Positions 502 through 55,638 of a stretch of DNA of 64,000 nt are shown piece after piece. The DNA comes from Eledone cirrhosa (Eukaryota). The notes under the pieces were generated by a model that saw only the letters and a program-made list of their open reading frames with translations, did no database searches and had not been told where the DNA came from. Numbering within the stretch: the stretch's first letter is position 1; every line of letters starts with the position of its first letter. The position numbers and the translations under genes are program-made. The stretch lies in the NCBI GenBank assembly GCA_964016885.1, contig OZ024755.1, forward strand, positions 36,146,001 to 36,210,000, written 5' to 3'.

Positions 502-509
502 ATCTAAGG

Positions 510-3500
510 TCATTTACCTTTGATTAACTTCCTGTACAGTACCTACTTAGGAATACAATGATCTGTCATTTACCTTTGACTAACTTCCTGTACAGTACCT
601 ACTTAGGAATACAATGATCTGTCATTTACCTTTGACTAACTTCCTGTACAGTACCTACTTAGGAATACAAATATCTGTCATTTACCTTTGACTAACTTCC
701 TGTACAGTACCTACTTAGGAATACAATGATCTGTCATTTACCTTTGACTAACTTCCTGTACAGTACCTACTTAGGAATACAAATATCTGTCATTTACCTT
801 TAACTAATTTCCTGTACAGTACCTACTTAGGAATACAAATATCTGTCATTTACCTTTAACTAATTTCCTGTACAGTACCTACTTAGGAATACAATGATCT
901 GTCATTTACCTTTGACTAACTTCCTGTACAGTACCTACTTAGAAATACAATGATCTGTCATTTACCTTTGACTAACTTCCTGTACAGTACCTACTTAGGA
1001 ATACAATGATCTGTCATTTACCTTTGACTAACTTCCTGTACAGTACCTACTTAGGAATACAATGATCTGTCATTTACCTTTGACTAACTTCCTGTACAGT
1101 ACCTACTTAGGAATACAATGATCTGTCATTTACCTTTGACTAACTTCCTGTACAGTACCTACTTAGGAATACAAATATCTGTCATTTACCTTTGACTAAC
1201 TTCCTGTACAGTACCTACTTAGGAATACAAATATCTGTCATTTACCTTTGACTAACTTGCTGTACAGTACCTACTTAGGAATACAAATATCTGTCATTTA
1301 CCTTTGACTAACTTCCTGTACAGTACCTACTTAGGAATACAATGATCTGTCATTTACCTTTGATTAACTTCCTGTACAGTACCTACTTAGGAATACAATG
1401 ATCTGTCATTTACCTTTGACTAACTTCCTGTACAGTACCTACTTAGGAATACAATGATCTGTCATTTACCTTTGATTAACTTCCTGTACAGTACCTACTT
1501 AGAAATACAATGATCTGTCATTTACCTTTGACTAACTTCCTGTACAGTACCTACTTAGGAATACAATGATCTGTCATTTACCTTTGACTAACTTCCTGTA
1601 CAGTACCTACTTAGGAATACAAATATCTGTCATTTACCTTTGATTAACTTCCTGTACAGTACCTACTTAGGAATACAATGATCTGTCATTTACCTTTGAC
1701 TAACTTCCTGTACAGTACCTACTTAGGAATACAATGATGTCATTTACCTTTGATTAACTTCCTGTACAGTACCTACTTAGGAATACAATGATCTGTCATT
1801 TACCTTTGACTAACTTCCTGTACAGTACCTACTTAGGAATACAATGATCTGTCATTTACCTTTGACTAACTTCCTGTACAGTACCTACTTAGGAATACAA
1901 TGATCTGTCATTTACCTTTGATTAACTTCCTGTACAGTACCTACTTAGGAATACAAATATCTGTCATTTACCTTTGACTAACTTCCTGTACAGTACCTAC
2001 TTAGGAATACAATGATCTGTCATTTACCTTTGATTAACTTCCTGTACAGTACCTACTTAGGAATACAATGATCTGTTCATTCACCTTTGACTAACTTCCT
2101 GTACAGTACCTACTTAGGAATACAATGATCTGTCATTTACCTTTGATTAACTTCCTGTACAGTACCTACTTAGGAATACAAATATCTGTCATTTACCTTT
2201 CACTAACTTCCTGTACAGTACCTACTTAGGAATACAAATATCTGTCATTTACCTTTGACTAACTTGCTGTACAGTACCTACTTAGGAATACAATGATGTC
2301 ATTTACCTTTGATTAACTTCCTGTACAGTACCTACTTAGGAATACAATGATGTCATTTACCTTTGATTAACTTCCTGTACAGTACCTACTTAGGAATACA
2401 ATGATGTCATTTACCTTTGATTAACTTCCTGTACAGTACCTACTTAGGAATACAAATATCTGTCATTTACCTTTGACTAACTTCCTGTACAGTACCTACT
2501 TAGGAATACAAATATCTGTCATTTACCTTTGACTAACTTCCTGTACAGTACCTACTTAGAAATACAATGATCTGTCATTTACCTTTGACTAACTTCCTGT
2601 ACAGTACCTACTTAGGAATACAATGATCTGTCATTTACCTTTGACTAACTTCCTGTACAGTACCTACTTAGGAATACAAATATCTGTCATTTACCTTTGA
2701 TTAACTTCCTGTACAGTACCTACTTAGGAATACAATGATCTGCCATTTACCTTTGACTAACTTCCTGTACAGTACCTACTTAGGAATACAATGATGTCAT
2801 TTACCTTTGATTAACTTCCTGTACAGTACCTACTTAGGAATACAATGATCTGACATTTACCTTTGACTAACTTCCTGTACAGTACCTACTTAGGAATACA
2901 ATCATCTGTCATTTACCTTTGACTAACTTCCTGTACAGTACCTACTTCGGAATACAAATATCTGTCATTTACCTTTGATTAACTTCCTGTACAGTACCTA
3001 CTTAGGAATACAATGATCTGTCATTTACCTTTGACTAACTTCCTGTACAGTACCTACTTAGGAATACAATGATCTGTCATTTACCTTTGACTAACTTCCT
3101 GTACAGTACCTACTTAGGAATACAATGATCTGTCATTTACCTTTGATTAACTTCCTGTACAGTACCTACTTAGGAATACAAATATCTGTCATTTACCTTT
3201 GACTAACTTCCTGTACAGTACCTACTTAGGAATACAATGATCTGTCATTTACCTTTGATTAACTTCCTGTACAGTACCTACTTAGGAATACAATGATCTG
3301 TTCATTCACCTTTGACTAACTTCCTGTACAGTACCTACTTAGGAATACAATGATCTGTCATTTACCTTTGATTAACTTCCTGTACAGTACCTACTTAGGA
3401 ATACAATGATCTGTCATTTACCTTTGACTAACTTGCTGTACAGTACCTACTTAGGAATACAATGATCTGTTCATTTACCTTTGACTAACTTCCTGTACAG

Positions 3501-6500
3501 TACCTACTTAGGAATACAATGATCTGTCATTTACCTTTGATTAACGTCCTGTACAGTACCTACTTAGGAATACAAATATCTGTCATTTACCTTTGACTAA
3601 CTTCCTGTACAGTACCTACTTAGGAATACAATGATCTGTCATTTACCTTTGATTAACTTCCTGTACAGTACCTACTTAGGAATACAATGATCTGTCATTT
3701 ACCTTTGATTAACTTCCTGTACAGTACCTACTTAGGAATACAATGATCTGTCATTTACCTTTGATTAACTTCCTGTACAGTACCTACTTAGGAATACAAT
3801 GATCTGTCATTTACCTTTGACTAACTTGCTGTACAGTACCTACTTAGGAATACAATGATCTGTTCATTTACCTTTGACTAACTTCCTGTACAGTACCTAC
3901 TTAGGAATACAATGATCTGTCATTTACCTTTGATTAACTTCCTGTACAGTACCTACTTAGGAATACAAATATCTGTCATTTACCTTTGACTAACTTCCTG
4001 TACAGTACCTACTTAGGAATACAATGATCTGTCATTTACCTTTGATTAACTTCCTGTACAGTACCTACTTAGGAATACAATGATCTGTCATTTACCTTTG
4101 ATTAACTTCCTGTACAGTACCTACTTAGGAATACAATGATCTGTCATTTACCTTTGATTAACTTCCTGTACAGTACCTACTTAGGAATACAATGATCTGT
4201 TCATTTACCTTTGACTAACTTCCTGTACAGTACCTACTTAGGAATACAATGATCTGTCATTTACCTTTGACTAACTTCCTGTACAGTACCTACTTAGGAA
4301 TACAAATATCTGTCATTTACCTTTGACTAACTTCCTGTACAGTACCTACTTAGGAAGACAAATATCTGTCAATTACCTTTGACTAACTTCCTGTACAGTA
4401 CCTACTTAGGAATACAATGATGTCATTTACCTTTGACTAACTTCCTGTACAGTACCTACTTAGGAATACAATGATCTGTCATTTACCTTTGATTAACTTC
4501 CTGTACAGTACCTACTTAGGAATACAATGATCTGTTCATTCACCTTTGACTAACTTCCTGTACAGTACCTACTTAGGAATACAATGATCTGTCATTTACC
4601 TTTGATTAACTTCCTGTACAGTACCTACTTAGGAATACAATGATCTGTCATTTACCTTTGACTAACTTGCTGTACAGTACCTACTTAGGAATACAATGAT
4701 CTGTTCATTTACCTTTGACTAACTTCCTGTACAGTACCTACTTAGGAATACAATGATCTGTCATTTACCTTTGATTAACGTCCTGTACAGTACCTACTTA
4801 GGAATACAAATATCTGTCATTTACCTTTGACTAACTTCCTGTACAGTACCTACTTAGGAATACAATGATCTGTCATTTACCTTTGATTAACTTCCTGTAC
4901 AGTACCTACTTAGGAATACAATGATCTGTCATTTACCTTTGATTAACTTCCTGTACAGTACCTACTTAGGAATACAATGATCTGTCATTTACCTTTGATT
5001 AACTTCCTGTACAGTACCTACTTAGGAATACAATGATCTGTCATTTACCTTTGACTAACTTGCTGTACAGTACCTACTTAGGAATACAATGATCTGTTCA
5101 TTTACCTTTGACTAACTTCCTGTACAGTACCTACTTAGGAATACAATGATCTGTCATTTACCTTTGATTAACTTCCTGTACAGTACCTACTTAGGAATAC
5201 AAATATCTGTCATTTACCTTTGACTAACTTCCTGTACAGTACCTACTTAGGAATACAATGATCTGTCATTTACCTTTGATTAACTTCCTGTACAGTACCT
5301 ACTTAGGAATACAATGATCTGTCATTTACCTTTGATTAACTTCCTGTACAGTACCTACTTAGGAATACAATGATCTGTCATTTACCTTTGATTAACTTCC
5401 TGTACAGTACCTACTTAGGAATACAATGATCTGTTCATTTACCTTTGACTAACTTCCTGTACAGTACCTACTTAGGAATACAATGATCTGTCATTTACCT
5501 TTGACTAACTTCCTGTACAGTACCTACTTAGGAATACAAATATCTGTCATTTACCTTTGACTAACTTCCTGTACAGTACCTACTTAGGAAGACAAATATC
5601 TGTCAATTACCTTTGACTAACTTCCTGTACAGTACCTACTTAGGAATACAATGATGTCATTTACCTTTGACTAACTTCCTGTACAGTACCTACTTAGGAA
5701 TACAATGATCTGTCATTTACCTTTGATTAACTTCCTGTACAGTACCTACTTAGGAATACAATGATCTGTCATTTACCTTTTACTAACTTCCTGTACAGTA
5801 CCTACTTAGGAATACAATGATCTGTCATTTACCTTTGAGTAACTTCCTGTACAGTACCTACTTAGGAATACAATGATCTGTCATTTACCTTTGATTAACT
5901 TCCTGTACAGTACCTACTTAGGAATACAATGATCTGTTCATTCACCTTTGACTAACTTCCTGTACAGTACCTACTTAGGAATACAATGATCTGTCATTTA
6001 CCTTTGATTAACTTCCTGTACAGTACCTACTTAGGAATACAATGATCTGTCATTTACCTTTGACTAACTTGCTGTACAGTACCTACTTAGGAATACAATG
6101 ATCTGTTCATTTACCTTTGACTAACTTCCTGTACAGTACCTACTTAGGAATACAATGATCTGTCATTTACCTTTGATTAACTTCCTGTACAGTACCTACT
6201 TAGGAATACAATGATCTGTCATTTACCTTTGATTAACTTCCTGTACAGTACCTACTTAGGAATACAATGATCTGTTCATTTACCTTTGACTAACTTCCTG
6301 TACAGTACCTACTTAGGAATACAATGATCTGTCATTTACCTTTGATTAACTTCCTGTACAGTACCTACTTAGGAATACAATGATCTGTCATTTACCTTTG
6401 ACTAACTTCCTGTACAGTACCTACTTAGGAATACAAATATCTGTCATTTACCTTTGATTAACTTCCTGTACAGTACCTACTTAGGAATACAATGATCTGT

Positions 6501-6559
6501 CATTTACCTTTGACTAACTTCCTGTACAGTACCTACTTAGGAATACAATGATCTGTCAT
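510..6559. repeat. 56-bp tandem satellite (about 108 copies) derived from RTE LINE coding sequence
   Basis: Unit atctgtcatttacctttgactaacttcctgtacagtacctacttaggaatacaatg with period 56 (561 to 617). Its reverse complement encodes MTDHCIPK*VLYRKLVKGK. Confidence 0.97.
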
Positions 6560-6735
6560 TCTTATAAAAGGGCCACTCAAGCACAATCTATATTGAATTA
6601 TGAGAGATTCAATACTTTCAAAATGACTTCATTCCGGCTCTTCAACATTACTCATATGAGATTGCCAACTGATATTGAGTATTCGGCGAGGATACTTTTG
6701 ATGAAAGTGATCAAGTATTTTTATATTTCACATGC
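6548..6735 (-). mobile_element. RTE-clade LINE ORF2 remnant running into the satellite
   Basis: The minus strand reads IKILDHFHQKYPRRILNISWQSHMSNVEE.*SHFESIESLIIQYRLCLSGPFIRM, which parallels the 17263-17652 RTE translation (LERFHQQSL...IESMIFRHRLRWSGHMIWM). Confidence 0.8.
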
Positions 6736-6827: not shown

Positions 6828-7186
6828 ATGAATGTATGTATAGTATATTTGGCAATATACCGTATGTTTAATTAAAAACATTTAGAAGACCATACGCTAT
6901 CAGTTTTAAAGTAGTCACTATGTCACTTACTTCTTTTCGGCGAAGGAAGGGAGAGACGCTGACAGTCTGTTTCACGTTGGTTGGCATTTATCAAAATCAC
7001 GCACGCCCCTGCTTCCGCTGAAAATTATAGAAGCTGGATTCTTATAGAATTCCAGTAATAATCAGGACCTGATTATACAGAGCGATTGCCGGTCCAGCAA
7101 AAATTAGGTATTAGGATTGGTGTTCTGAAATAGCGATGTGTACATGAATGTATGTATAGTATATTTGGCTATATACCGTATGTTTA

Positions 7187-7189
<3 letters not shown>
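6828..7189 (-). mobile_element. 316-bp retrozyme-like element (1.15 units) in a (TA)n tract
   Basis: A 46-bp direct terminal repeat (6828-6873 and 7144-7189, one mismatch) gives period 316. (TA)n lies on both sides and there is an internal hammerhead-like motif. Confidence 0.65.
6945..7016 (-). ncRNA. putative type I hammerhead ribozyme (U3-A8 core variant)
   Basis: Minus strand: ggaag-c-aggggcg-tgcgtga-tt TTGATAA atg[ccaaccaa]cgt GAAAC agact GTC ag-cgtctct-cc-cttcc. Core spacing is correct and stem I is bulged, with only 2 bp next to the core. Confidence 0.55.
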
Positions 7190-7246
<57 letters not shown>

Positions 7247-7250
<4 letters not shown>

Positions 7251-8072
7251 CATGTTCGATATGTAGGAAAGGAACTGGCATAAATTCCATAAAATGTACG
7301 CAATGCAGATCCTGGGTACACAAGAGATGTAGTGGGATAGCAGGCAAACTAACAGGTAGGGAAAACTATGAATGCAGTAGATGTACAGGGAAAGTTGGCA
7401 GTAGTAATCGCAGTGATAGACACATTTTTCCAATACAGGTGGGTTCTATAGAGGTGGTTGATAGCTTCCGGTACCTAGGTTATCATATTAGCATGGCAGG
7501 AGGGTGTTCTGAGGCCATAGTATCTAGAATAAGGACGGCTTGGAAGAAGTTTAGGGAGCTGCTTCCTCTGTTGACAAAGAAGGGTTTCTCCCGGTGTACG
7601 AAATGATAGTTATATAATGCCGATGCGTGATGCTGCATGGTAGTGAGACATTGGCAGCAACTGCAGAGGATATGCGATGGCTGGAGAGAAATGAAGCAAG
7701 TATGCTCCGTTGGATGTGCAATATCAATGTGTGTGAATAACCAATCATAGACGAGTTGAGAAAGAAACTGGGTACCAAGGGGTTAAGCTGTAGTGTGCGA
7801 GAGAGAAGACTGCGATGGTATGGACATGTCATGCGCATGGAGGATGACTGCTGGGTAAAGAAGTGCCAAGAAATCCCAGTAGAAGGAAGACGTGGTAGAG
7901 GAAGACCACGAAAAACATGGGCGGAGGTGGTGAGAGCAGACCTCAGATCGCTGAAACTCAAGGAGGAGATGACGAAGGACCGTGACAAGTGGATAGATGC
8001 TGTGCTGAATAGGACCCGTCCAACCCTTGCAAGCAGGGAAAAGCGGACGTAAAATAATGATGATGATAATAA
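7247..8072 (+). mobile_element. 5'-truncated RTE-clade LINE with a PHD-like finger; decayed
   Basis: WPCSICRKG..KCTQCRSWVHKRC..YECSRC, then EVVDSFRYLG, RIRTAWKKFRELLPLL, RRLRWYGHVMRM and GRGRPRKTW. 3' tail aacccttgcaagcagggaaaagcggacgtaaa(tga)n. Confidence 0.9.
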
Positions 8073-8825: not shown

Positions 8826-9190
8826 TGGCTTAGTGGTTAGAGCATTGGCCTTGCAACCGAAAGGTTGTGAGTTCAATTCTCAGACCGGGTGATGTGTTGT
8901 TTCCTTGAGCAAGGCACTTTATTTCACATTGCTCCAGTTTACTCAGCTGTAGAAATGAGATGATAGGGACTGGGGTCCATATCATTCCACTGCAAAGTGC
9001 TCGTGTAGGCGCCACGGAAAAAAAAGCACCCAGCACTCACTGTAAATGAGGTTGGTGTTAGGAAGGGCATCCAGCTGTAGAAATCAAGCCAAAATCAGTT
9101 CCTGTATGAGCAAGGCATGGTCAGCCAACCAGACACTGCCCACAACAGGACAACCCGTCTAACCCATGCTAGCATGGAAGAAATGACGTA
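8826..9190 (+). mobile_element. tRNA-derived CORE-type SINE with RTE-like 3' tail
   Basis: A-box tggcttagtggttaga, B-box gagttcaattc, CORE-like ccttgagcaaggcactttatttcac, then ggttggtgttaggaagggcatccagc and the tail aacccatgctagcatggaa. Confidence 0.8.
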
Positions 9191-9277
9191 GGGGTTCTCC
9201 TACATGGATATAAAGTAGTGGCCGTACTCGAAAACGAGTTGGCAGCCACCATGTATATATATATATATATATATAAC

Positions 9278-9841
9278 AGTATCTGCTACCTAGGTGACCG
9301 AATTAGCAGCGGCGGTGGGTGTTCGGAAAGTACAATAACTAGGGTAAGAACGGGATGGAAGAAGTTCAGGGAGCTACTGCCACTGCTAGCTGCAAAAGGC
9401 ATTTCCCTCAAAATGAAGGGCAGACTGTATGATGTGTGTATACGAACAGCAATGTTACATGGTAGTGAGACCTGGGCGCTGAAGGTGGACGACTTACGTA
9501 GATTAGAGAGAAACGAAGCTTGCATGCTCCGATGGATGTGTAATAACAATATATGCGAATGGCAAAGCATAATTGAATTGAGAGAGAGACTGAGCATAAA
9601 AAGAATCAAATGCTGTCTGCAGGAGAGGAGGTTGCGTTGGTATGGACATGCGATGCGTATGAAGGATGACAGCTGCATAAAAAGGTGCAGAGCACTAGAA
9701 GTCGATGGAAGCTGCGGAGTGGGGAGACCCAAGAAGACCTGGGATGAGGTGATAAAGGCCGACCTTACCCAATTGCACCTCTCAAGGGCGATGACACACG
9801 ACCGTGACCTCTGGTGTCACACAGTAATACAGAAGACCTGA
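9278..9841 (+). mobile_element. RTE LINE ORF2 3' fragment
   Basis: ORF 9218-9841 contains YLGDRIS..RVRTGWKKFRELLPLL..MLHGSETW..RRLRWYGHAMRM..GRPKKTW. Confidence 0.9.
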
Positions 9842-17169: not shown

Positions 17170-17803
17170 GAAATAGCCTTAAGAATCAAGAAAGCCAGTG
17201 GTGCTTTTGGACGGCTGCATAAATGTTTATGGTCCAGTTGAGGTATCCCTATTGAAACCAAGGTGAAAGTGTATCTAACTTGTGTTGTCTCCTCTTTGCT
17301 TTATGCTTGTGAAACGTGGGTCACATACAGAAAGCACCTCAAGGAACTCGAGAGGTTTCACCAACAATCTCTTTGTGAGTTACTTGGGGTGTGGTGGAAA
17401 ATGTTTGTCAGTGATTTGGAAGTTCTCGAATGGAGCAGGTGCGTGACTATAGAAAGCATGATCTTTCGGCATCGGTTGAGGTGGTCCGGTCACATGATCT
17501 GGATGTCTGATGATCGTATTCCAAAGCAACTTCTCTACGGAGAACTGTGTGAAGGAAGGCGACCACCACACAAACCAAAAATGCGGTACCGGGACTGTGT
17601 CAGGGGTACCTTGGCTTGTGCTGGAATTTCATCTGCCGAATGGGAGAAATAGGCTGAGGAGCGTGTGAAGTGAAGATGTTTGATCAAATCAGGAGGTGAA
17701 CACTTTGAAACCCATCGGAGAGAACACCTTACACTGAAAAGGAAGGTAAGGAAAAGAGACTGTTCTGAACTGCCTGCTGTTGAACATCATCTGGTTTGCC
17801 AGA
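17170..17803 (+). mobile_element. RTE (BovB-like) LINE ORF2 fragment
   Basis: EIALRIKKASGAFGRL..TKVKVY..LLYACETW..RLRWSGHM..RIPKQLLYGEL..HHLVCQ. Confidence 0.88.
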
Positions 17804-27963: not shown

Positions 27964-29511
27964 TTAACCCCTTAGCATTTAAACTGACCATATCCGGCCA
28001 GAATTCTCTCACCACCAGCTGTAACCAGCCACACATACCAACATTAAGGTATTGTTCTCAAAATAAATAACATCAAAATCTCATAGCTTTGATATTATGT
28101 GACATAATTATGTGAGGTAAAGCCTTTACTGTGAAAATACAATAGTATATATAATGTAAATGTTATGTGAGATATTATGTGAGGTAAAGCCTTTACTGTG
28201 AAAATACAATAGTATATATAGAGTAATGTAAATGTTATGTGAGATATTATGTGAGGTAAAGCCTTTACTGTGAAAATACAATAGTATATATAGAGTAATG
28301 TAAATGTTATGTGAGATATTATGTGAGGTAAAACCTTTACTGTGAAAATACAATAGTATATATAGAGTAATGTAAATGTTATGTGAGATATTATGTGAGG
28401 TAAAGCCTTTACTGTGAAAATACAATAGTATATATAGAGTAATGTGAGATATTATGTGAGGTAAAGCCTTTACTGTGAAAATACAATAGTATATATAATG
28501 TAAATGTTATGTGAGATATTATGTGAGGTAAAGCCTTTACTGTGAAAATACAATAGTATATATAGAGTAATGTAAATGTTATGTGAGATATTATGTGAGG
28601 TAAAGCCTTTACTGTGAAAATACAATAGTATATATAGAGTAATGTAAATGTTATGTGAGATATTATGTGAGGTAAAACCTTTACTGTGAAAATACAATAG
28701 TATATATAGAGTAATGTAAATGTTATGTGAGATATTATGTGAGGTAAAGCCTTTACTGTGAAAATACAATAGTATATATAGAGTAATGTGAGATATTATG
28801 TGAGGTAAAGCCTTTACTGTGAAAATACAATAGTATATATAATGTAAATGTTATGTGAGATATTATGTGAGGTAAAGCCTTTACTGTGAAAATACAATAG
28901 TATATATAGAGTAATGTAAATGTTATGTGAGATATTATGTGAGGTAAAGCCTTTACTGTGAAAATACAATAGTATATATAGAGTAATGTAAATGTTATGT
29001 GAGATATTATGTGAGGTAAAACCTTTACTGTGAAAATACAATAGTATATATAGAGTAATGTAAATGTTATGTGAGATATTATGTGAGGTAAAGCCTTTAC
29101 TGTGAAAATACTATAGTATATATATTGAGTAATGTAAATGTTATGTGAGATATTATGTGTGGTAAAGCCTTTACTGTGAAAATACAATAGTAAATATAGA
29201 ATAATGTAAATGTTATGTGAGATAATTGTGAAGTAAAGCCTTTACTGTGAAAATACAATAGTAAATATAGAGTAATGTAAATGTTATGTGAGATATTATG
29301 TGTGGTAAAGCCTTTACTGTGACAATACAATAGTATATATAGAGTAATGTAAATGTTATGAGAGATATTATGTGAGGTAAAGCCTTTACTGTGAAAATAC
29401 AATAGTATATATAGAGTAATGTAAATGGTATGTGAGATATTATGTGTGGTAAAGCCTTTACTGTGAAAATACAATAGTATATATAGAGTAATGTAAATGG
29501 TAAAGGGTTAA
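27964..29511 (+). mobile_element. piggyBac-like MITE expanded by an internal 72-bp tandem array
   Basis: TTAA-ccccttagcattta ... taaatggtaaaggg-TTAA. About 20 copies of ttatgtgagatattatgtgaggtaaagcctttactgtgaaaatacaatagtatatatagagtaatgtaaatg, with a 344-bp higher-order period. Confidence 0.9.
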
Positions 29512-36108: not shown

Positions 36109-37744
36109 TACTAAATATACTGAACTTTATCTCTTGTCACTGTTGCAACTTCCATTCCTTACTAAATATACTGAACTTTATCCCTTGTCACTGTTGCAAC
36201 TTCCATTCCTTACTAAATATACTGAACTTTATCCCTTGTCACTGTTGCAACTTCCATTCCTTACTAAATATACTGAACTTTATCTCTTGCCATTGTTGCA
36301 ACTTCCATTCCTTACTAAATATACTGAACTTTATCCCTTGTCACTGTTGCAACTTCCATTCCTTACTAAATATACTGAACTTTATCTCTTGCCATTGTTG
36401 CAACTTCCATTCCTTACTAAATATACTGAACTTTATCCCTTGTCACTGTTGCAACTTCCATTCCTTACTAAATATACTGAACTTTATCTCTTGTCACCGT
36501 TGCAACTTCCATTCCTTACTAAATATACTGAACTTTATCTCTTGTCACTGTTGCTACTTCCATTCCTTACTAAATATACTGAACTTTATCTCTTGTCACT
36601 GTTGCAACTTCCATTCCTTACTAAATATACTGAACTTTATCCCTTGTCACTGTTGCAACTTCCATTCCTTACTAAATATACTGAACTTTATCTCTTGTCA
36701 CCGTTGCAACTTCCATTCCTTACTAAATATACTGAACTTTATCTCTTGTCACTGTTGCTACTTCCATTCCTTACTAAATATACTGAACTTTATCTCTTGC
36801 CACTGTTGTTACTTCCATTCCTTACTAAATATAATGAACTTTATCCCTTGTCACTGTTGCAACTTCCATTCCTTACTAAATATACTGAACTTTATCTCTT
36901 GTCACTGTTGCAACTTCCATTCCTTACTAAATATACTGAACTTTATCCCTTGTCACTGTTGCAACTTCCATTCCTTACTAAATATACTGAACTTTATCCC
37001 TTGTCACTGTTGCAACTTCCATTCCTTACTAAATATACTGAACTTTATCTCTTGTCACTGTTGCAACTTCCATTCCTTACTAAATATACTGAACTTTATC
37101 TCTTGTCACTGTTGCAACTTCCATTCCTTACTAAATATACTGAACTTTATCCCTTGTCACTGTTGCAACTTCCATTCCTTACTAAATATACTGAACTTTA
37201 TCCCTTGTCACTGTTACAACTTCCATTCCTTACTAAATATACTGAACTTTATCTCTTGTCACTGTTGCAACTTCCATTCCTTACTAAATATACTGAACTT
37301 TATCTCTTGTCACTGTTGCAACTTCCATTCCTTACTAAATATACTGAACTTTATCCCTTGTCACTGTTGCAACTTCCATTCCTTACTAAATATACTGAAC
37401 TTTATCCCTTGTCACTGTTGCAACTTCCATTCCTTACTAAATATACTGAACTTTATCTCTTGTCACTGTTGCAACTTCCATTCCTTACTAAATATACTGA
37501 ACTTTATCCCTTGCCACTGTTGCAACTTCCATTCCTTACTAAATATACTGAACTTTATCTCTTGTCACTGTTGTTACTTCCATTCCTTACTAAATATACT
37601 GAACTTTATCTCTTGTCACTGTTGTTACTTCCATTCCTTACTAAATATACTGAACTTTATCTCTTGTCACTGCTGCAACTTCCATTCCTTACTAAATATA
37701 CTGAACTTTATCTCTTGTCACTGTTGCTACTTCCATTCCTTTAC
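36109..37744. repeat. 51-bp minisatellite (about 32 copies)
   Basis: Unit actaaatatactgaactttatcycttgtcactgttgcaacttccattcctt. Confidence 0.97.
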
Positions 37745-38205: not shown

Positions 38206-38420
38206 TTCTGCCAGGTGTTGCGACCGGTAGATAGTATCAGCAATAGAAAGACCAGCGGAACCCCCTTTAGGAAACCCAGCCCTAAACCACCCTTCAGTGG
38301 AGATATGACAAACAGGTTTCCTTCAACAGCACCAATACACAAGAAGATATTGATGTGCTACCTCCTCTCTATACATGAGTAACAGAGTAGCTCATGATTT
38401 CTCATGATGTCTCCATGTGC

Positions 38421-39190
38421 ATAATGCTACATGTCACAAGCTGATTTCTCACGATGTCTGTATATATAATGCTACATGTCACAAGCTGATTTCTCACGAC
38501 GTCTGTATATATAATGCTATATGTCACAGGCTGATTTCTCACGATGTCTGTATATATAATGCTACATGTCACAGGCTGATTTCTCACGACGTCTGTATAT
38601 ATAATGCTACATGTTACAAGCTGATTTCTCACGATGTCTGTATATATAATGCTACATGTCACAAGCTGATTTCTCACGATGTCTGTATATATAATGCTAC
38701 ATGTCACAAGCTGATTTCTCACGATGTCTGTATATATAATGCTACATGTCACAAGCTGATTTCTCACGATGTCTGTATATATAATGCTACATGTCACAAG
38801 CTGATTTCTCACGATGTCTGTATATATAATGCTACATGTCACAAGCTGATTTCTCACGATGTCTGTATATATAATGCTACATGTCACAAGCTGATTTCTC
38901 ACGACGTCTGTATATATAATGCTACATGTCACAAGCTGATTTCTCACGATGTTTGTATATATAATGCTACATGTCACAGGCTGATTTCTCACGACGTCTG
39001 TATATATAATGCTACATGTCACAAGCTGATTTCTCACGATGTCTGTATATATAATGCTACATGTCACAAGCTGATTTCTCACGATGTCTGTATATATAAT
39101 GCTACATGTTACAAGCTGATTTCTCATGTCTTCATATGTATAATGCTACATGTTACGTTTGTTGATTTCTCGTGGTGCCTTCATATATAT
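38421..39190. repeat. 45-bp minisatellite (about 17 copies)
   Basis: Unit ataatgctacatgtcacaagctgatttctcacgatgtctgtatat. Confidence 0.95.
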
Positions 39191-39518: not shown

Positions 39519-42500
39519 CATTATATACACCCAAAACCATCAGTTCCCATCATATACACCCAAAACCATCAGTTCCCATTTTATACACCCAAAACTATCA
39601 GTTCCCATTATATACACCCAAAACCATCAGTTCCCATTATATACACCCAAAACTATCAGTTCCCATTATATACACCCAAAACTATCAGTTCCCATTATAT
39701 ACACCCAAAACCATCAGTTCCCATTATATACACCCAAAACTATCAGTTCCCATTATATACACCCAAAACTATCAGTTCCCATTATATACACCCAAAACCA
39801 TCAGTTCCCATCATATACACCCAAAACCATCAGTTCCCATTATATACACCCAAAACTATCAGTTCCCATTATATACACCCAAAACCATCAGTTCCCATCA
39901 TATACACCCAAAACTATCAGTTCTCATCATATACACCCAAAACTATCAGTTCCCATTATATACACCCAAAACTATCAGTTCCCATTATATACACCCAAAA
40001 CTATCAGTTCCCATTATATACACCCAAAACTATCAGTTCCCATTATATACACCCAAAACTATCAGTTCCCATTATATACACCCAAAACTATCAGTTCTCA
40101 TCATATACACCCAAAACTATCAGTTCCCATTATATACACCCAAAACTATCAGTTCTCATCATATACACCCAAAACTATCAGTTCTCATCATATACACCCA
40201 AAACTATCAGTTCCCATCATATACACCCAAAACTATCAGTTCCCATTATATACACCCAAAACTATCAGTTCCCATTATATACACCCAAAACCATCAGTTC
40301 CCATTATATACACCCAAAACCATCAGTTCTCATCATATACACCCAAAACTATCAGTTCCCATTATATACACCCAAAACTATCAGTTCCCATTATATACAC
40401 CCAAAACTATCAGTTCCCATTATATACACCCAAAACCATCAGTTCTCATCATATACACCCAAAACTATCAGTTCCCATTATATACACCCAAAACCATCAG
40501 TTCTCATCATATACACCCAAAACTATCAGTTCCCATTATATACACCCAAAACTATCAGTTCCCATTATATACACCCAAAACCATCAGTTCCCATTATATA
40601 CACCCAAAACCATCAGTTCTCATCATATACACCCAAAACTATCAGTTCTCATTATATACACCCAAAACTATCAGTTCTCATTATATACACCCAAAACTAT
40701 CAGTTCCCATTATATACACCCAAAACTATCAGTTCCCATTATATACACCCAAAACCATCAGTTCCCATTATATACACCCAAAACTATCAGTTCCCATTAT
40801 ATACACCCAAAACCATCAGTTCCCATTATATACACCCAAAACTATCAGTTCTCATTATATACACCCAAAACTATCAGTTCCCATTATATACACCCAAAAC
40901 TATCAGTTCCCATTATATACACCCAAAACTATCAGTTCCCATTATATACACCCAAAACTATCAGTTCCCATTATATACACCCAAAACCATCAGTTCCCAT
41001 TATATACACCCAAAACCATCAGTTCCCATTATATACACACAAAACCATCAGTTCCCATTATATACACCCAAAACCATCAGTTCCCATTATATACACCCAA
41101 AACTATCAGTTCCCATTATATACACCCAAAACTATCAGTTCCCATTATATACACCCAAAACTATCAGTTCTCATTATATACACCCAAAACTATCAGTTCC
41201 CATTATATACACCCAAGACTATCAGTTCCCATTATATACACCCAAAACTATCAGTTCCCATTATATACACTCAAAACCATCAGTTCTCATCATATACACC
41301 CAAAACTATCAGTTCCCATTATATACACCCAAAACTATCAGTTCTCATTATATACACCCAAAACTATCAGTTCTCATTATATACACCCAAAACTATCAGT
41401 TCCCATTATATACACCCAAAACTATCAGTTCCCATTATATACACCCAAAACTATCAGTTCTCATTATATACACCCAAAACTATCAGTTCCCATTATATAC
41501 ACCCAAAACTATCAGTTCTCATTATATACACCCAAGACTATCAGTTCCCATTATATACACCCAAAACTATCAGTTCTCATTATATACACCCAAAACTATC
41601 AGTTCCCATTATATACACCCAAAACTATCAGTTCTCATTATATACACCCAAAACTATCAGTTCCCATTATATACACCCAAAACTATCAGTTCTCATTATA
41701 TACACCCAAAACTATCAGTTCTCATTATATACACCCAAAACTATCAGTTCCCATTATATACACCCAAAACTATCAGTTCTCATTATATACACCCAAGACT
41801 ATCAGTTCCCATTATATACACCCAAAACTATCAGTTCTCATTATATACACCCAAAACTATCAGTTCTCATTATATACACCCAAAACTATCAGTTCCCATT
41901 AGATACACCCAAAACTATCAGTTCTCATTATATACACCCAAAACTATCAGTTCTCATTATATACACCCAAAACTATCAGTTCCCATTATATACACCCAAA
42001 ACTATCAGTTCTCATTATATACACCCAAAACTATCAGTTCCCATTATATACACCCAAGACTATCAGTTCCCATTATATACACACAAAACCATCAGTTCTC
42101 ATTATATACACCCAAAACTATCAGTTCCCATTATATACACCCAAAACTATCAGTTCCCATTATATACACCCAAAACCATCAGTTCCCATTATATACACCC
42201 AAGACTATCAGTTCTCATTATATACACCCAAAACTATCAGTTCCCATTATATACACCCAACACTATCAGTTCCCATTATATACACCCAAAACTATCAGTT
42301 CCCATTATATACACCCAAGACTATCAGTTCCCATTATATACACCCAAAACCATCAGTTCCCATTATATACACCCAAAACTATCAGTTCCCATTATATACA
42401 CCCAAAACCATCAGTTCCCATTATATACACCCAAAACTATCAGTTCCCATTATATACACCCAAAACCATCAGTTCCCATTATATACACCCAACACTATCA

Positions 42501-42696
42501 GTTCCCATTATATACACCCAAAACTATCAGTTCCCATTATATACACCCAAGACTATCAGTTCCCATTATATACACCCAAAACTATCAGTTCCCATTATAT
42601 ACACCCAAGACTATCAGTTCCCATTATATACACCCAAAACCATCAGTTCCCATTATATACACCCAAAACTATCAGTTCCCATTATATACACCCAAA
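39519..42696. repeat. 29-bp minisatellite (about 110 copies)
   Basis: Unit cattatatacacccaaaactatcagttcc; one more degenerate unit follows the SINE at about 42888-42912. Confidence 0.97.
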
Positions 42697-43069: not shown

Positions 43070-44371
43070 ATTCAGTGTGGAAATACCAAAACAGACAAAG
43101 ATTTGGTGGTGGACATGCAAAAGTCTCTCTTGTAAAATTGGGGTATTTAAAGGATGGGGATGTTGTGTATGACTGCGGCATCAAACCACAGACTACGCAG
43201 CACCTCCTGATATGCCCCCTGCTAGAACACCCCTGCACAGCATTGGACTTGGCAGAGTTTAATGAGATAGGACAGTAATGTGTTCAGCTGTGGTGGAACC
43301 ACATCTGGCCAACCTTTGTAACTGACACTCTTGTGGACACAAGGACAGTAATGTGTTCAGCTGTGGTGGAACCACATCTGGCCAACCTTTGTAACTGACA
43401 CTCTTGTGGACACAAGGACAGCAATGTGTTCAGCTGTGGCAGAACCACATCTGGCCAACCTTTGTAACTGACACTCTTGTGGACACAAGGACAGCAATGT
43501 GTTCAGCTGTGGTAGAACCACATCTAGCCAACCTTTGTAACTGACACTCTTGTGGACACAAGAACAGCAATGTGTTCAGCTGTGGTAGAACCACATCTAG
43601 CCAAGCTTTGTAACTGACACTCTTGTGGACACAAGGACAGCAATGTGTTCAGCTGTGGTAGAACCACATCTAGCCAAGCTTTGTAACTGACACTCTTGTG
43701 GACACAAGGACAGCAATGTGTTCAGCTGTGGTAGAACCACATCTAGCCAAGCTTTGTAACTGACACTCTTGTGGACACAAGGACAGCAATGTGTTCAGCT
43801 GTGGTAGAACCACATCTAGCCAAGCTCTGTAACTGACACTCTTGTGGACACAAGGACAACAATGTGTTCAGTTGTGACAGAACCACATCTAGCCAAGCTT
43901 TGTAACTGACACTCTTGTTGACACAAGGACAGCAATGTGTTCAGCTGTGGTAGAACCACATCTAGCCAAGCTCTGTAACTGACACTCTTGTGGACACAAG
44001 GACAACAATGTGTTCAGTTGTGACAGAACCACATCTAGCCAAGCTTTGTAACTGACACTCTTGTTGACACAAGAACAGCAATGTGTTCAGCTGTGGTAGA
44101 ACCACATCTAGCCAAGCTCTGTAACTGACACTCTTGTGGACACAAGGACAACAATGTGTTCAGTTGTGACAGAACCACATCTAGCCAAGCTTTGTAACTG
44201 ACACTCTTGTTGACACAAGGACAACAATGTGTTCAGATGTGGTAGAACCACATCTAGCCAAGCTCTGTAACTGACACTCTTGTGGACACAAGGACAGCAA
44301 TGTGTTCAGCTGTGGTAGAACCACATCTAGCCAAGCTCTGTAACTGACACTCTTGTGAACACGAGAAGAAG
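43070..44371 (+). mobile_element. I-group (Ingi/Vingi-like) LINE 3' end with its last 73 bp amplified about 15 times
   Basis: VWKYQNRQRFGGG..KLGY..DCGIKPQTTQHLLICP (decayed CCHC knuckle), then period-73 repeats from 43269, ending in acacgagaagaag. Confidence 0.75.
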
Positions 44372-49697: not shown

Positions 49698-49801
49698 TTT
49701 TAAATAAACCTGAATCAACTGAATATGGCCTCCAATCTTATATATATATATATATATATATCTCCAGGGAGTGTAACACGGAGTTACTGTAGTATTATTA
49801 T

Positions 49802-49841
<40 letters not shown>

Positions 49842-49910
49842 TATGAAGAGAGAAGAAACATTTAGATATAATTAGTAATAAAATGTATCATACCTAAACT
49901 GTTCCTAAAT

Positions 49911-49998
49911 TCCTCGACTACGTAGTTTCGTGGCATAAACAAAAACAATATATCAAAGATATAGAGTCCTTGCGAGGTCTGCCAACTTATCAAGAGGA
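49911..49998 (-). ncRNA. type I hammerhead ribozyme, first of 8 minus-strand copies (others start at 50502, 51093, 51684, 52275, 52866, 53457, 54038)
   Basis: Reverse complement of the motif at 54584-54671. Confidence 0.78.
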
Positions 49999-52900
49999 TA
50001 CCTCATTTTACTAGTCTCAAGAACGCGTCTACACGACGTGAGAAAGAATCCCAAAAGGCGGAGGGGGAGATAGTCACGCGATATAACGGTCGAGAAACAG
50101 AGCTAAGCCTCTTATAACCACGAAGAAAATACCACGGAGGCGGAGGGGGTATTCATATCGAGGCCGTAGAAGAGGTAGTGAAGAAGGCGAGAAGTATGAG
50201 TAATGGAAGCTTTCCAGTTGTCCCCACACTTCAAAGATTGCTCGACCAGAGGGAGTTATTAATATATTTAAAAACACACAGATACATGCGGACACACACA
50301 TATATACATGAATGCATCCGCACCCAACTGTGAGTTAAGGGTGCCAACTTCACCGATGTTGCTCAATGAATGACTGGGACAGACCAATTCAGTTTGAACC
50401 AGACTGAACCAGTATCAGAGTTAAAAATACATTATGAAGAGAGAAGAAACATTTAGATATAATTAGTAATAAAATGTATCATACCTAAACTGTTCCTAAA
50501 TTCCTCGACTACGTAGTTTCGTGGCATAAACAAAAACAATATATCAAAGATATAGAGTCCTTGCGAGGTCTGCCAACTTATCAAGAGGATACCTCATTTT
50601 ACTAGTCTCAAGAACGCGTCTACACGACGTGAGAAAGAATCCCAAAAGGCGGAGGGGGAGATAGTCACGCGATATAACGGTCGAGAAACAGAGCTAAGCC
50701 TCTTATAACCACGAAGAAAATACCACGGAGGCGGAGGGGGTATTCATATCGAGGCCGTAGAAGAGGTAGTGAAGAAGGCGAGAAGTATGAGTAATGGAAG
50801 CTTTCCAGTTGTCCCCACACTTCAAAGATTGCTCGACCAGAGGGAGTTATTAATATATTTAAAAACACACAGATACATGCGGACACACACATATATACAT
50901 GAATGCATCCGCACCCAACTGTGAGTTAAGGGTGCCAACTTCACCGATGTTGCTCAATGAATGACTGGGACAGACCAATTCAGTTTGAACCAGACTGAAC
51001 CAGTATCAGAGTTAAAAATACATTATGAAGAGAGAAGAAACATTTAGATATAATTAGTAATAAAATGTATCATACCTAAACTGTTCCTAAATTCCTCGAC
51101 TACGTAGTTTCGTGGCATAAACAAAAACAATATATCAAAGATATAGAGTCCTTGCGAGGTCTGCCAACTTATCAAGAGGATACCTCATTTTACTAGTCTC
51201 AAGAACGCGTCTACACGACGTGAGAAAGAATCCCAAAAGGCGGAGGGGGAGATAGTCACGCGATATAACGGTCGAGAAACAGAGCTAAGCCTCTTATAAC
51301 CACGAAGAAAATACCACGGAGGCGGAGGGGGTATTCATATCGAGGCCGTAGAAGAGGTAGTGAAGAAGGCGAGAAGTATGAGTAATGGAAGCTTTCCAGT
51401 TGTCCCCACACTTCAAAGATTGCTCGACCAGAGGGAGTTATTAATATATTTAAAAACACACAGATACATGCGGACACACACATATATACATGAATGCATC
51501 CGCACCCAACTGTGAGTTAAGGGTGCCAACTTCACCGATGTTGCTCAATGAATGACTGGGACAGACCAATTCAGTTTGAACCAGACTGAACCAGTATCAG
51601 AGTTAAAAATACATTATGAAGAGAGAAGAAACATTTAGATATAATTAGTAATAAAATGTATCATACCTAAACTGTTCCTAAATTCCTCGACTACGTAGTT
51701 TCGTGGCATAAACAAAAACAATATATCAAAGATATAGAGTCCTTGCGAGGTCTGCCAACTTATCAAGAGGATACCTCATTTTACTAGTCTCAAGAACGCG
51801 TCTACACGACGTGAGAAAGAATCCCAAAAGGCGGAGGGGGAGATAGTCACGCGATATAACGGTCGAGAAACAGAGCTAAGCCTCTTATAACCACGAAGAA
51901 AATACCACGGAGGCGGAGGGGGTATTCATATCGAGGCCGTAGAAGAGGTAGTGAAGAAGGCGAGAAGTATGAGTAATGGAAGCTTTCCAGTTGTCCCCAC
52001 ACTTCAAAGATTGCTCGACCAGAGGGAGTTATTAATATATTTAAAAACACACAGATACATGCGGACACACACATATATACATGAATGCATCCGCACCCAA
52101 CTGTGAGTTAAGGGTGCCAACTTCACCGATGTTGCTCAATGAATGACTGGGACAGACCAATTCAGTTTGAACCAGACTGAACCAGTATCAGAGTTAAAAA
52201 TACATTATGAAGAGAGAAGAAACATTTAGATATAATTAGTAATAAAATGTATCATACCTAAACTGTTCCTAAATTCCTCGACTACGTAGTTTCGTGGCAT
52301 AAACAAAAACAATATATCAAAGATATAGAGTCCTTGCGAGGTCTGCCAACTTATCAAGAGGATACCTCATTTTACTAGTCTCAAGAACGCGTCTACACGA
52401 CGTGAGAAAGAATCCCAAAAGGCGGAGGGGGAGATAGTCACGCGATATAACGGTCGAGAAACAGAGCTAAGCCTCTTATAACCACGAAGAAAATACCACG
52501 GAGGCGGAGGGGGTATTCATATCGAGGCCGTAGAAGAGGTAGTGAAGAAGGCGAGAAGTATGAGTAATGGAAGCTTTCCAGTTGTCCCCACACTTCAAAG
52601 ATTGCTCGACCAGAGGGAGTTATTAATATATTTAAAAACACACAGATACATGCGGACACACACATATATACATGAATGCATCCGCACCCAACTGTGAGTT
52701 AAGGGTGCCAACTTCACCGATGTTGCTCAATGAATGACTGGGACAGACCAATTCAGTTTGAACCAGACTGAACCAGTATCAGAGTTAAAAATACATTATG
52801 AAGAGAGAAGAAACATTTAGATATAATTAGTAATAAAATGTATCATACCTAAACTGTTCCTAAATTCCTCGACTACGTAGTTTCGTGGCATAAACAAAAA

Positions 52901-54583
52901 CAATATATCAAAGATATAGAGTCCTTGCGAGGTCTGCCAACTTATCAAGAGGATACCTCATTTTACTAGTCTCAAGAACGCGTCTACACGACGTGAGAAA
53001 GAATCCCAAAAGGCGGAGGGGGAGATAGTCACGCGATATAACGGTCGAGAAACAGAGCTAAGCCTCTTATAACCACGAAGAAAATACCACGGAGGCGGAG
53101 GGGGTATTCATATCGAGGCCGTAGAAGAGGTAGTGAAGAAGGCGAGAAGTATGAGTAATGGAAGCTTTCCAGTTGTCCCCACACTTCAAAGATTGCTCGA
53201 CCAGAGGGAGTTATTAATATATTTAAAAACACACAGATACATGCGGACACACACATATATACATGAATGCATCCGCACCCAACTGTGAGTTAAGGGTGCC
53301 AACTTCACCGATGTTGCTCAATGAATGACTGGGACAGACCAATTCAGTTTGAACCAGACTGAACCAGTATCAGAGTTAAAAATACATTATGAAGAGAGAA
53401 GAAACATTTAGATATAATTAGTAATAAAATGTATCATACCTAAACTGTTCCTAAATTCCTCGACTACGTAGTTTCGTGGCATAAACAAAAACAATATATC
53501 AAAGATATAGAGTCCTTGCGAGGTCTGCCAACTTATCAAGAGGATACCTCATTTTACTAGTCTCAAGAACGCGTCTACACGACGTGAGAAAGAATCCCAA
53601 AAGGCGGAGGGGGAGATAGTCACGCGATATAACGGTCGAGAAACAGAGCTAAGCCTCTTATAACCACGAAGAAAATACCACGGAGGCGGAGGGGGTATTC
53701 ATATCGAGGCCGTAGAAGAGGTAGTGAAGAAGGCGAGAAGTATGAGTAATGGAAGCTTTCCAGTTGTCCCCACACTTCAAAGATTGCTCGACCAGAGGGA
53801 GTTATTAATATATTTAAAAACACACAGATACATGCGGACACACACATATATACATGAATGCATCCGCACCCAACTGTGAGTTAAGGGTGCCAACTTCACC
53901 GATGTTGCTCAATGAATGACTGGGACAGACCAATTCAGTTTGAACCAGTATCAGAGTTAAAAATACATTATGAAGAGAGAAGAAACATTTAGATATAATT
54001 AGTAATAAAATGTATCATACCTAAACTGTTCCTAAATTCCTCGACTACGTAGTTTCGTGGCATAAACAAAAACAATATATCAAAGATATAGAGTCCTTGC
54101 GAGGTCTGCCAACTTATCAAGAGGATACCTCATTTTACTAGTCTCAAGAACGCGTCTACACGACGTGAGAAAGAATCCCAAAAGGCGGAGGGGGAGATAG
54201 TCACGCGATATAACGGTCGAGAAACAGAGCTAAGCCTCTTATAACCACGAAGAAAATACCACGGATGCATTCATGTATATATGTGTGTGTCCGCATGTAT
54301 CTGTGTGTTTTTAAATATATTAATAACTCCCTCTGGTCGAGCAATCTTTGAAGTGTGGGGACAACTGGAAAGCTTCCATTACTCATACTTCTCGCCTTCT
54401 TCACTACCTCTTCTACGGCCTCGATATGAATACCCCCTCCGCCTCCGTGGTATTTTCTTCGTGGTTATAAGAGGCTTAGCTCTGTTTCTCGACCGTTATA
54501 TCGCGTGACTATCTCCCCCTCCGCCTTTTGGGATTCTTTCTCACGTCGTGTAGACGCGTTCTTGAGACTAGTAAAATGAGGTA

Positions 54584-54671
54584 TCCTCTTGATAAGTTGG
54601 CAGACCTCGCAAGGACTCTATATCTTTGATATATTGTTTTTGTTTATGCCACGAAACTACGTAGTCGAGGA
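54584..54671 (+). ncRNA. type I hammerhead ribozyme (U3-A8 variant); predicted cleavage after C54666
   Basis: tcctc TTGATAA gttggca [44 nt] tgccac GAAAC tacgta GTC gagga: 5-bp stem I, stem II and palindromic stem III actacgtagt. Confidence 0.8.
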
Positions 54672-55174
54672 ATTTAGGAACAGTTTAGGTATGATACATT
54701 TTATTACTAATTATATCTAAATGTTTCTTCTCTCTTCATAATGTATTTTTAACTCTGATACTGGTTCAGTCTGGTTCAAACTGAATTGGTCTGTCCCAGT
54801 CATTCATTGAGCAACATCGGTGAAGTTGGCACCCTTAACTCACAGTTGGGTGCGGATGCATTCATGTATATATGTGTGTGTCCGCATGTATCTGTGTGTT
54901 TTTAAATATATTAATAACTCCCTCTGGTCGAGCAATCTTTGAAGTGTGGGGACAACTGGAAAGCTTCCATTACTCATACTTCTCGCCTTCTTCACTACCT
55001 CTTCTACGGCCTCGATATGAATACCCCCTCCGCCTCCGTGGTATTTTCTTCGTGGTTATAAGAGGCTTAGCTCTGTTTCTCGACCGTTATATCGCGTGAC
55101 TATCTCCCCCTCCGCCTTTTGGGATTCTTTCTCACGTCGTGTAGACGCGTTCTTGAGACTAGTAAAATGAGGTA

Positions 55175-55262
55175 TCCTCTTGATAAGTTGGCAGACCTCG
55201 CAAGGACTCTATATCTTTGATATATTGTTTTTGTTTATGCCACGAAACTACGTAGTCGAGGA
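55175..55262 (+). ncRNA. type I hammerhead ribozyme, second plus-strand copy
   Basis: Identical to 54584-54671, shifted by 591 bp. Confidence 0.8.
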
Positions 55263-55493
55263 ATTTAGGAACAGTTTAGGTATGATACATTTTATTACTA
55301 ATTATATCTAAATGTTTCTTCTCTCTTCATAATGTATTTTTAACTCTGATACTGGTTCAGTCTGGTTCAAACTGAATTGGTCTGTCCCAGTCATTCATTG
55401 AGCAACATCGGTGAAGTTGGCACCCTTAACTCACAGTTGGGTGCGGATGCATTCATGTATATATGTGTGTGTCCGCATGTATCTGTGTGTTTT

Positions 55494-55534
<41 letters not shown>

Positions 55535-55568
55535 ATAATAATACTACTACAGTAACTCCGTGTTACAC

Positions 55569-55638
55569 TTGTGTTCTCATCAGATAAAATAAGGTAACAT
55601 GATATCATGTTACCTTATTTCATCTGATGAGAACACAA
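55569..55638. repeat. 70-bp near-perfect loopless palindrome
   Basis: ttgtgttctcatcagataaaataaggtaacatgat|atcatgttaccttatttcatctgatgagaacacaa, with one mismatch. Confidence 0.92.

Follow-up and report, generated by a model that had tools for sequence, protein, structure and literature searches.

A 591-bp tandem repeat of Eledone cirrhosa with a Penelope-type hammerhead, a predicted stem I-II pseudoknot and two-armed insertions with two preferred ends

Hammerhead ribozymes are carried by several kinds of animal repeats, among which those of Penelope-like elements (PLEs) and of non-LTR retrozymes are closest to the case described here. PLE hammerheads have a long helix II and a helix I of only 4-5 bp, with a mid-helix bulge in D. 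virilis; about 1,300 of them in Schistosoma have a U3-A8 pair, and a small palindromic helix III occurs in several invertebrate hammerheads (PMC4209133). Natural hammerheads with U3-A8 have also been reported to be active in vitro (PMC3088659). The main accounts describe PLE hammerheads as lacking recognisable tertiary contacts (PMC4209133, PMC7761336), while stem I-II pseudoknots, tested by compensatory mutation, are present in about 40% of another hammerhead set (PMC3088659). Regarding mobility, the Poseidon element PAc, modelled as a dimer, cuts and extends both target strands and uses two internal start sites that bound its tail; its hammerhead is protein-assisted and dispensable for insertion in vitro (PMC11167929). 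Circular templates have been hypothesised (PMC4209133, PMC6765202), and RtcB circularises retrozyme RNA in vitro (PMC7229834). Vertebrate retrozymes are linked to PLEs by homology, and eight of nine Xenopus retrozyme dimers did not cleave (bioRxiv 10.64898/2026.07.22.740005). As far as these sources go, the literature leaves open the origin of tandem and inverted PLE insertions, the role of the hammerhead, and the mobility of retrozymes via circular RNA.

The window (the whole stretch of 64,000 nucleotides analysed here) contains an array of ten hammerhead cores spaced 591 bp apart, each in a 591-bp unit. The array consists of two arms arranged head to head and overlapping by 7 nt at the junction. 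Counting unit positions from the predicted cut site, the plus-strand arm (54262..55502) holds 2.1 units, and its outer end at +245 is joined to a (TA)n tract at 55497-55531; the minus-strand arm (49836..54268) holds 7.5 units with eight hammerheads, and its outer end at +80 is joined to (TA)n at 49805-49838. Apart from a 10-bp deletion near 53940 in the minus arm, the units are identical. This tandem, inverted organisation had been overlooked in the preliminary description of the locus, which dealt with a single hammerhead. The unit is non-coding, with no reading frame above 86 amino acids; the arms are made of unit sequence only, with no open reading frame for reverse transcriptase (RT) plus GIY-YIG between pLTRs, as an autonomous PLE would have. 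Arrays of 99-100% identity are found on many contigs of the 3.0-Gb genome (40 of 494 candidates scored). With tandem non-coding units, a type I hammerhead and dispersed recent insertions, the 591-bp unit is a very young mobile repeat behaving as a non-LTR retrozyme. In two runs (X1 and X6) the unit makes up a single contig that exceeds the unit length by 30; a circular or a tandem form would account for this, and so, equally, would trace host DNA, and the observation is given no weight as evidence. Elsewhere, the window contains large, homogeneous minisatellite arrays at 509-6560 (period 56), 28095-29499 (72), 36109-37741 (51), 38395-39153 (45), 39519-42696 (29) and 43269-44362 (73). The fragments at 7160-7606, 9173-9841 and 17242-17652 resemble what we take to be C-terminal regions of non-LTR retrotransposon RTs.

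The hammerhead in the plus arm (54584..54671) is identified by its core pattern, by folding and by pair counts over 28 family copies. Stem I is formed by UCCUC (54584-88) and GAGGA (54667-71), and is followed by the core UUGAUAA (U3 to A9, 54589-54595), stem II (54596-602/54647-52), GAAA (54653-56) and stem III, the perfect palindrome ACUACGUAGU (54656-65), with a GUC triplet and predicted cleavage after C54666. A second, identical hammerhead lies one unit downstream on the same strand (55175..55262, predicted cut after 55257) and is a possible dimer partner. Besides the U3-A8 core, G10.1-C11.1, GAAA and GUC are all present, and the stems are 97-100% paired in the 28 copies. Although an Rfam search at the gathering score gave no match for the hammerhead region, the core-anchored pattern has 7,022 matches genome-wide and none in a reversed control, and therefore the motif is not a chance occurrence. 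The hammerhead is real and of type I, and self-cleavage is predicted from its sequence. The preliminary description was thus right about the ribozyme class and core, and also about the compensatory nature of the 3-8 pair, which is U3-A8 in 250 and U3-G8 in one of the 251 matched copies from 103 loci. It had likewise correctly noted the palindromic stem III, suited to dimer cleavage, and the 44 nt that separate A54602 from U54647 in stem II, and every string that it quoted is found in the window; a bulge in stem II at 54598, which is C in most genomic copies, had escaped it. For the palindrome a homoduplex of -12.9 kcal/mol is predicted and no hairpin when folded alone, as expected for dimer cleavage.

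What does not hold is the view that such a U3-A8 hammerhead is unusual. Apart from the Schistosoma examples cited above, there are 5,263 further U3-A8 matches from other families in the same genome (control 54), and an autonomous PLE of this genome has such a hammerhead as well. Long stem II extensions are also common, with 3,175 C3-G8 matches (control 13), and stem III is palindromic in seven of 13 family representatives of long-stem-II hammerheads in this genome. U3-A8 and a palindromic stem III are ordinary, already published traits of PLE hammerheads.

Stem II continues, according to the prediction, as one unbranched extension (54610..54642), with a helix at 54610-16/54636-42, a 2x2 internal loop and a hairpin at 54619-33; RNAalifold on the 28 copies, drawn from young and old subfamilies, agrees. 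The internal loop that caps stem II proper contains on its 5′ side ACCUCG (54604..54609), complementary to UGAGGU (54577..54582), the six bases preceding stem I. A Watson-Crick pseudoknot between these two strands, which had gone unnoticed, is the most likely stem I-II contact on the evidence of comparative sequence. All pseudoknot cells are paired over the 28 family copies and none is broken, with the terminal pair varying across subfamilies as U-A (14), U-G (11) and C-G (2). More specifically, the pseudoknot is kept via compensatory changes in eight of the 13 long-stem-II hammerhead families of the genome, as judged from 109 distinct sequences compared in fixed windows; these 13 families are related to one another. 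At least four Watson-Crick pairs are formed in seven of the 13 families versus 24% of cross-family pairings, the eighth family has six pairs including three G-U, and the remaining five of the 13 are without such a pseudoknot. The mean duplex energy is -4.4 kcal/mol versus -2.1 kcal/mol for cross-family pairings (3 of 20,000 permutations), and position controls for the windows gave -2.5, -1.0 and -0.5 kcal/mol.

For 29 sequences chosen from these eight families, with the strands anchored on their best helix, the four central columns are paired in 29 of 29, with forms including GAGG/CCUC, GAGU/ACUC, GAGC/GCUC and GGAA/UUCC; one column alone shows G-C, U-A, A-U, C-G and U-G. Overall 103 of 114 cells are paired in this picked and anchored set versus 82.7 after shuffling (0 of 20,000). 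The MAFFT alignment of the families shifts the register of the pseudoknot, hence pairs were not counted on it directly. In an unrelated C3-G8 hammerhead (locus L119), a GAGUUU-like partner was predicted from the loop and then found in the flank at the same spacing. Against the pseudoknot, within-family pair counts do not beat shuffles: the alternative structure with the unbranched stem II has 98.2% of its cells paired, but 127 of 500 shuffles did as well, so that the signal is a cross-family one. In addition, forcing the core costs the nested fold 8-13 kcal/mol relative to the free fold, which exceeds the -6.9 kcal/mol of the pseudoknot duplex. With a stem I flank that pairs with loop II and covaries with it, the motif belongs, computationally, among the pseudoknotted hammerheads. 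No pseudoknot in PLE or retrozyme hammerheads was found among literature titles and abstract openings, though Lunse et al. (PMC5785218), the supplement of PMC7229834 or additional file 1 of PMC4209133 may already show one. The pseudoknot would supply a tertiary contact for a class of hammerheads described without one, and may explain the poor cleavage by trimmed constructs.

The same sequences can also adopt a fold in which the ribozyme is off. Here the bases just 5′ of stem I fold back on it (GAGG-UAU-CCUC, 54578-88), and GAGGA, the 3′ strand of stem I, is buried in a long hairpin after the cut site (+1..+71, 54667..54737). This hairpin, which stops 9 nt short of the +80 end site (54746), has a counterpart in a second long predicted hairpin (+171..+234, 55428..55491, plus strand), 11 nt before the +245 end. 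The predicted fold of a 591-nt circle has a z-score of -5.35 (40 shuffles), with the ribozyme in the off state. RNAalifold additionally pairs a strand overlapping the pseudoknot (54576-54581) with 54735-54740, just before the +80 end site; this pairing is broken in two of the 28 copies, both of which retain the pseudoknot. It is possible that it links the state of the ribozyme to access to the priming site, if the modelled pairing forms.

The 591-bp element has its outer ends at +80 or +245, in both cases about 10 nt past a long predicted hairpin. Ends were surveyed at 103 loci, comprising 39 of best identity, 36 taken in order along one contig (C1) and 28 of an older subfamily. The 69 two-arm calls consist of 63 that pair a +80 end with a +245 end, four that were kept after hand inspection as having one atypical end (L035, L076, L163 and L185), and two artefacts that were dropped, namely L062, cut by the locus edge, and L073, in which two insertions are joined. 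Hence 63 of 67 two-arm insertions have one end of each kind, and none has 80/80 or 245/245; L083 and L086 look like duplicates of a single insertion, in which case 62 of the 63 may be independent. One-arm copies end at +80 in 14 cases, at +245 in 19 and elsewhere in two. Central junctions mostly show an overlap or gap of a few bases and are truly symmetric in three of 65, and no direct target-site duplication was found beyond (TA)n in 65 loci. An inverted, 5′-truncated arm, a tail at one end and an AT-rich target, all of which this element shows, together make up the insertion signature of PLEs. At four loci, G>A at +77 occurs only in the terminal copies, as would be seen were those bases contributed by the (TA)n primer, which we infer.

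The host flanks of the window array beyond (TA)n (49770-49804 and 55532-55570) are inverted copies of each other over about 36 bp. Strong inverted flank matches of this kind were seen in two of 65 two-arm loci (the window and L056) versus five of 4,160 cross-locus pairs, and one more locus (L131) has such a match under a looser filter; they could reflect an inverted target duplication or nested older insertions. Next to the window array, a near-perfect 68-bp palindrome (55570-55637) contains the hammerhead-core-like word CTGATGAG and may mark where the arms of another PLE-type insertion meet head to head.

Mobilisation of the 591-bp element by a PLE is well supported, and the genome offers a candidate partner. 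At locus L140 lies a tandem PLE; in its 938-codon frame, GIY-YIG (Pfam PF01541) scores 28.3 bits, above its cut-off, and RVT_1 scores 28 bits, below the cut-off of 29.6; a Cys-rich linker resembles that of Neptune and Nematis as these are described in PMC8557442. This element has a U3-A8 hammerhead and a (TA)n target, and +82 and +150 are the positions at which its copies join (TA)n. Each position is used once in all nine two-arm copies whose two ends can be seen, three of them from the GIY-YIG search and six from a search that selected +150 ends. The ends resemble those of the retrozyme in their pyrimidine-rich sequences, but other families have similar ends too, and other U3-A8 families of the genome also end in (TA)n. 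In a blastn comparison of the unit with 50 GIY-YIG loci, which came from 150 scored of 10,597 candidates, no homology was found except simple repeats and one neighbouring insertion. Because of this lack of homology, and because other families end alike, the partnership is unproven and an L140-type PLE is proposed, from sequence features, as a candidate.

Several observations were made alongside. The element itself (L140:2773-7901) is a young Neptune-like PLE with a unit of 4,979 bp, a long, minisatellite-like 3′ region and a 68-nt tail. Contig C1 of the genome (G000) holds many further long-stem-II hammerhead families ending in (TA)n (L211-L289), some of which are tandem (L226, spacing 663, and L231, spacing 485) and resemble further retrozymes that have two end sites of their own. 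Two abundant U3-A8 families with a short stem II (L290-L319) can end at either of two sites in (TA)n or (CT)n, about 35 nt from each other, a spacing that matches the classic PLE tail length.

Our main reading, to which we assign a probability of roughly three in four, is that the hammerhead in every unit, likely held by the pseudoknot, cuts tandem RNA, and that a PLE RT likely copies the resulting circle. In such a cycle stem II continues as one hairpin whose internal loop is complementary to the bases 5′ of stem I, as sequence and covariation show. Cleavage after C54666 would probably be most efficient in dimers formed via the palindromic stem III, perhaps with the assistance of protein, and by analogy with known systems a host ligase would close the monomer into a circle of 591 nt, where the ribozyme is predicted to be off. 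The insertions in (TA)n, with two head-to-head arms ending at +80 and +245 and often several identical units per arm, would then arise when a dimeric PLE RT-endonuclease cuts both (TA)n strands; each target strand would be primed at one site on the same RNA, with synthesis running round the circle, and the two cDNAs would be joined at short microhomologies.

A more specific version is offered tentatively, as something that we hold at somewhat under even odds: one dimeric PLE RT-endonuclease may use one ribozyme-made circular RNA at two dedicated priming sites, both subunits rolling, and the hammerhead may be a pseudoknot-locked bistable switch of a large, pseudoknotted PLE-type class, which cuts multimers and is then off in the circle. 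If true, dual-site, one-per-strand priming on a circular RNA would be an undescribed integration geometry; a search of the literature for the terms of this mechanism in combination returned a review only. Variants bear on whether the two arms share a template. The same variants are found in both arms at eight of eight informative loci among the 39, and at L043 and L047 variants present in no other locus run through every full unit of the two arms. Shared variants could, however, go back to a common source locus instead of a single RNA molecule. The family offers thousands of near-identical insertions resolved by long reads, a strict one-site-per-arm rule and a candidate PLE partner. Together with the variants shared by the arms, these make the dual-priming, one-circle model directly testable.

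Neither the circle nor dual priming would be needed if the template were a linear multimer, or if units were multiplied by unequal crossover after insertion, with an inverted arm that primed itself. Tandem source loci are plentiful, local amplification (bioRxiv 10.64898/2026.07.22.740005) and antisense self-priming (PMC3846280) have both been proposed, and the +80/+245 asymmetry corresponds to the ‘tail at one end’ already known. However, both outer ends join (TA)n precisely, the private variants of L043 and L047 extend through all full units of both arms, and the mostly asymmetric central junctions (three truly symmetric of 65) are unlike those of a fold-back; we consider this explanation unlikely. 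A linear multimer that is primed twice is possible. Equally unlikely, in our judgement, is a hammerhead fold that has been retained chiefly as a structure for the PLE protein, or that cuts only in the bound state, with self-cleavage dispensable for mobility. The PAc hammerhead does cleave only with protein and its mutants still insert (PMC11167929), and the free fold of the unit is the ribozyme-off one; yet core, stems and pseudoknot are kept across subfamilies of about 80% identity though their flanks change, and the exact unit-length tandems fit a monomer that is cut and ligated.

We give almost no credence to the complete fold of the preliminary description, with a branched stem II and a stem I extended round a purine-rich bulge that pairs with a U-rich strand, since although all its helices can be drawn in the window copy, it has 88.2% of cells paired with no two-sided change, a covariation score matched by 500 of 500 shuffles, and would bury the covarying pseudoknot strands. 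The branched insert is predicted at -6.2 kcal/mol versus -15.6 kcal/mol for the unbranched one, and its cct/agg hairpin has a pair probability of 0.00 and 51.8% of cells paired in 28 family copies, versus 94.9% for the unbranched helix, whose 3′ side is the supposedly free U-rich strand. For the extended stem I the outcome is divided. Its outer parts, pairing in 72% and 79% of cells, are not upheld, whereas the inner five pairs (GUAUC/GAUAC) can form in 28 of 28 copies via G-U and possibly represent a minor fold; the extension costs only 3.6 kcal/mol within the borders originally drawn, but 15.4 kcal/mol when the next 50 nt are included (-29.4 versus -44.8). The proposed loop I-II contact (aggaacag/ttgttttt) is a duplex of -3.6 kcal/mol with 84.4% of cells paired and no two-sided change, and both strands have better partners by folding and pair counts; indeed, the aggaacag ‘bulge’ sits in the conserved hairpin 3′ of the cut site, which is 99.2% paired in the 28 copies. 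The features flagged at first are thus either known or mis-folded, and what stands out instead is the covarying pseudoknot and the two-site insertion rule.

Compared with the PLE pLTR hammerheads reported in PMC4209133 (Cercyon of Schistosoma and Penelope of D. virilis), the present one has the same U3-A8 pair, stem I of 5 bp, long stem II bulged in mid-helix and short palindromic stem III; unlike them, it has a 44-nt stem II extension with a covarying pseudoknot, and its unit is without an open reading frame. The pseudoknotted hammerheads of PMC3088659 likewise have Watson-Crick pairing of a stem I flank with loop II, but the tested examples in that account are of type II and metagenomic, whereas here the motif is of type I, belongs to an animal repeat and uses an internal loop of stem II. 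With the metazoan non-LTR retrozymes, as presented in PMC7229834 and bioRxiv 10.64898/2026.07.22.740005, the family shares tandem non-coding units that each contain a single type I hammerhead, a low GC content, a highly self-paired predicted circle and PLEs in the same genome, and 591 bp falls within the retrozyme range of 51-972 bp given in the latter. It differs from them in its PLE-type hammerhead (U3-A8, bulged long stem II), in which a pseudoknot takes the place of the canonical loop 1-loop 2 contacts, and in a predicted circle that folds the ribozyme off, whereas the circles of PMC7229834 mostly leave it free; dispersed two-arm insertions with two fixed ends are not described for retrozymes in the main accounts of these two sources. 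In its insertions the family shares with PLEs, according to PMC8557442 and PMC3846280, an inverted 5′-truncated arm and a tail at one end, unlike them having a tail of 165 nt rather than 30-40 and arms that are both multimeric and non-coding. Finally, the AT-rich target, the priming of both strands and the two internal starts downstream of the hammerhead are the same as in the PAc Poseidon element of PMC11167929; the rule of one site per arm is strict here (63:0), whereas PAc gave no difference between strands in vitro.
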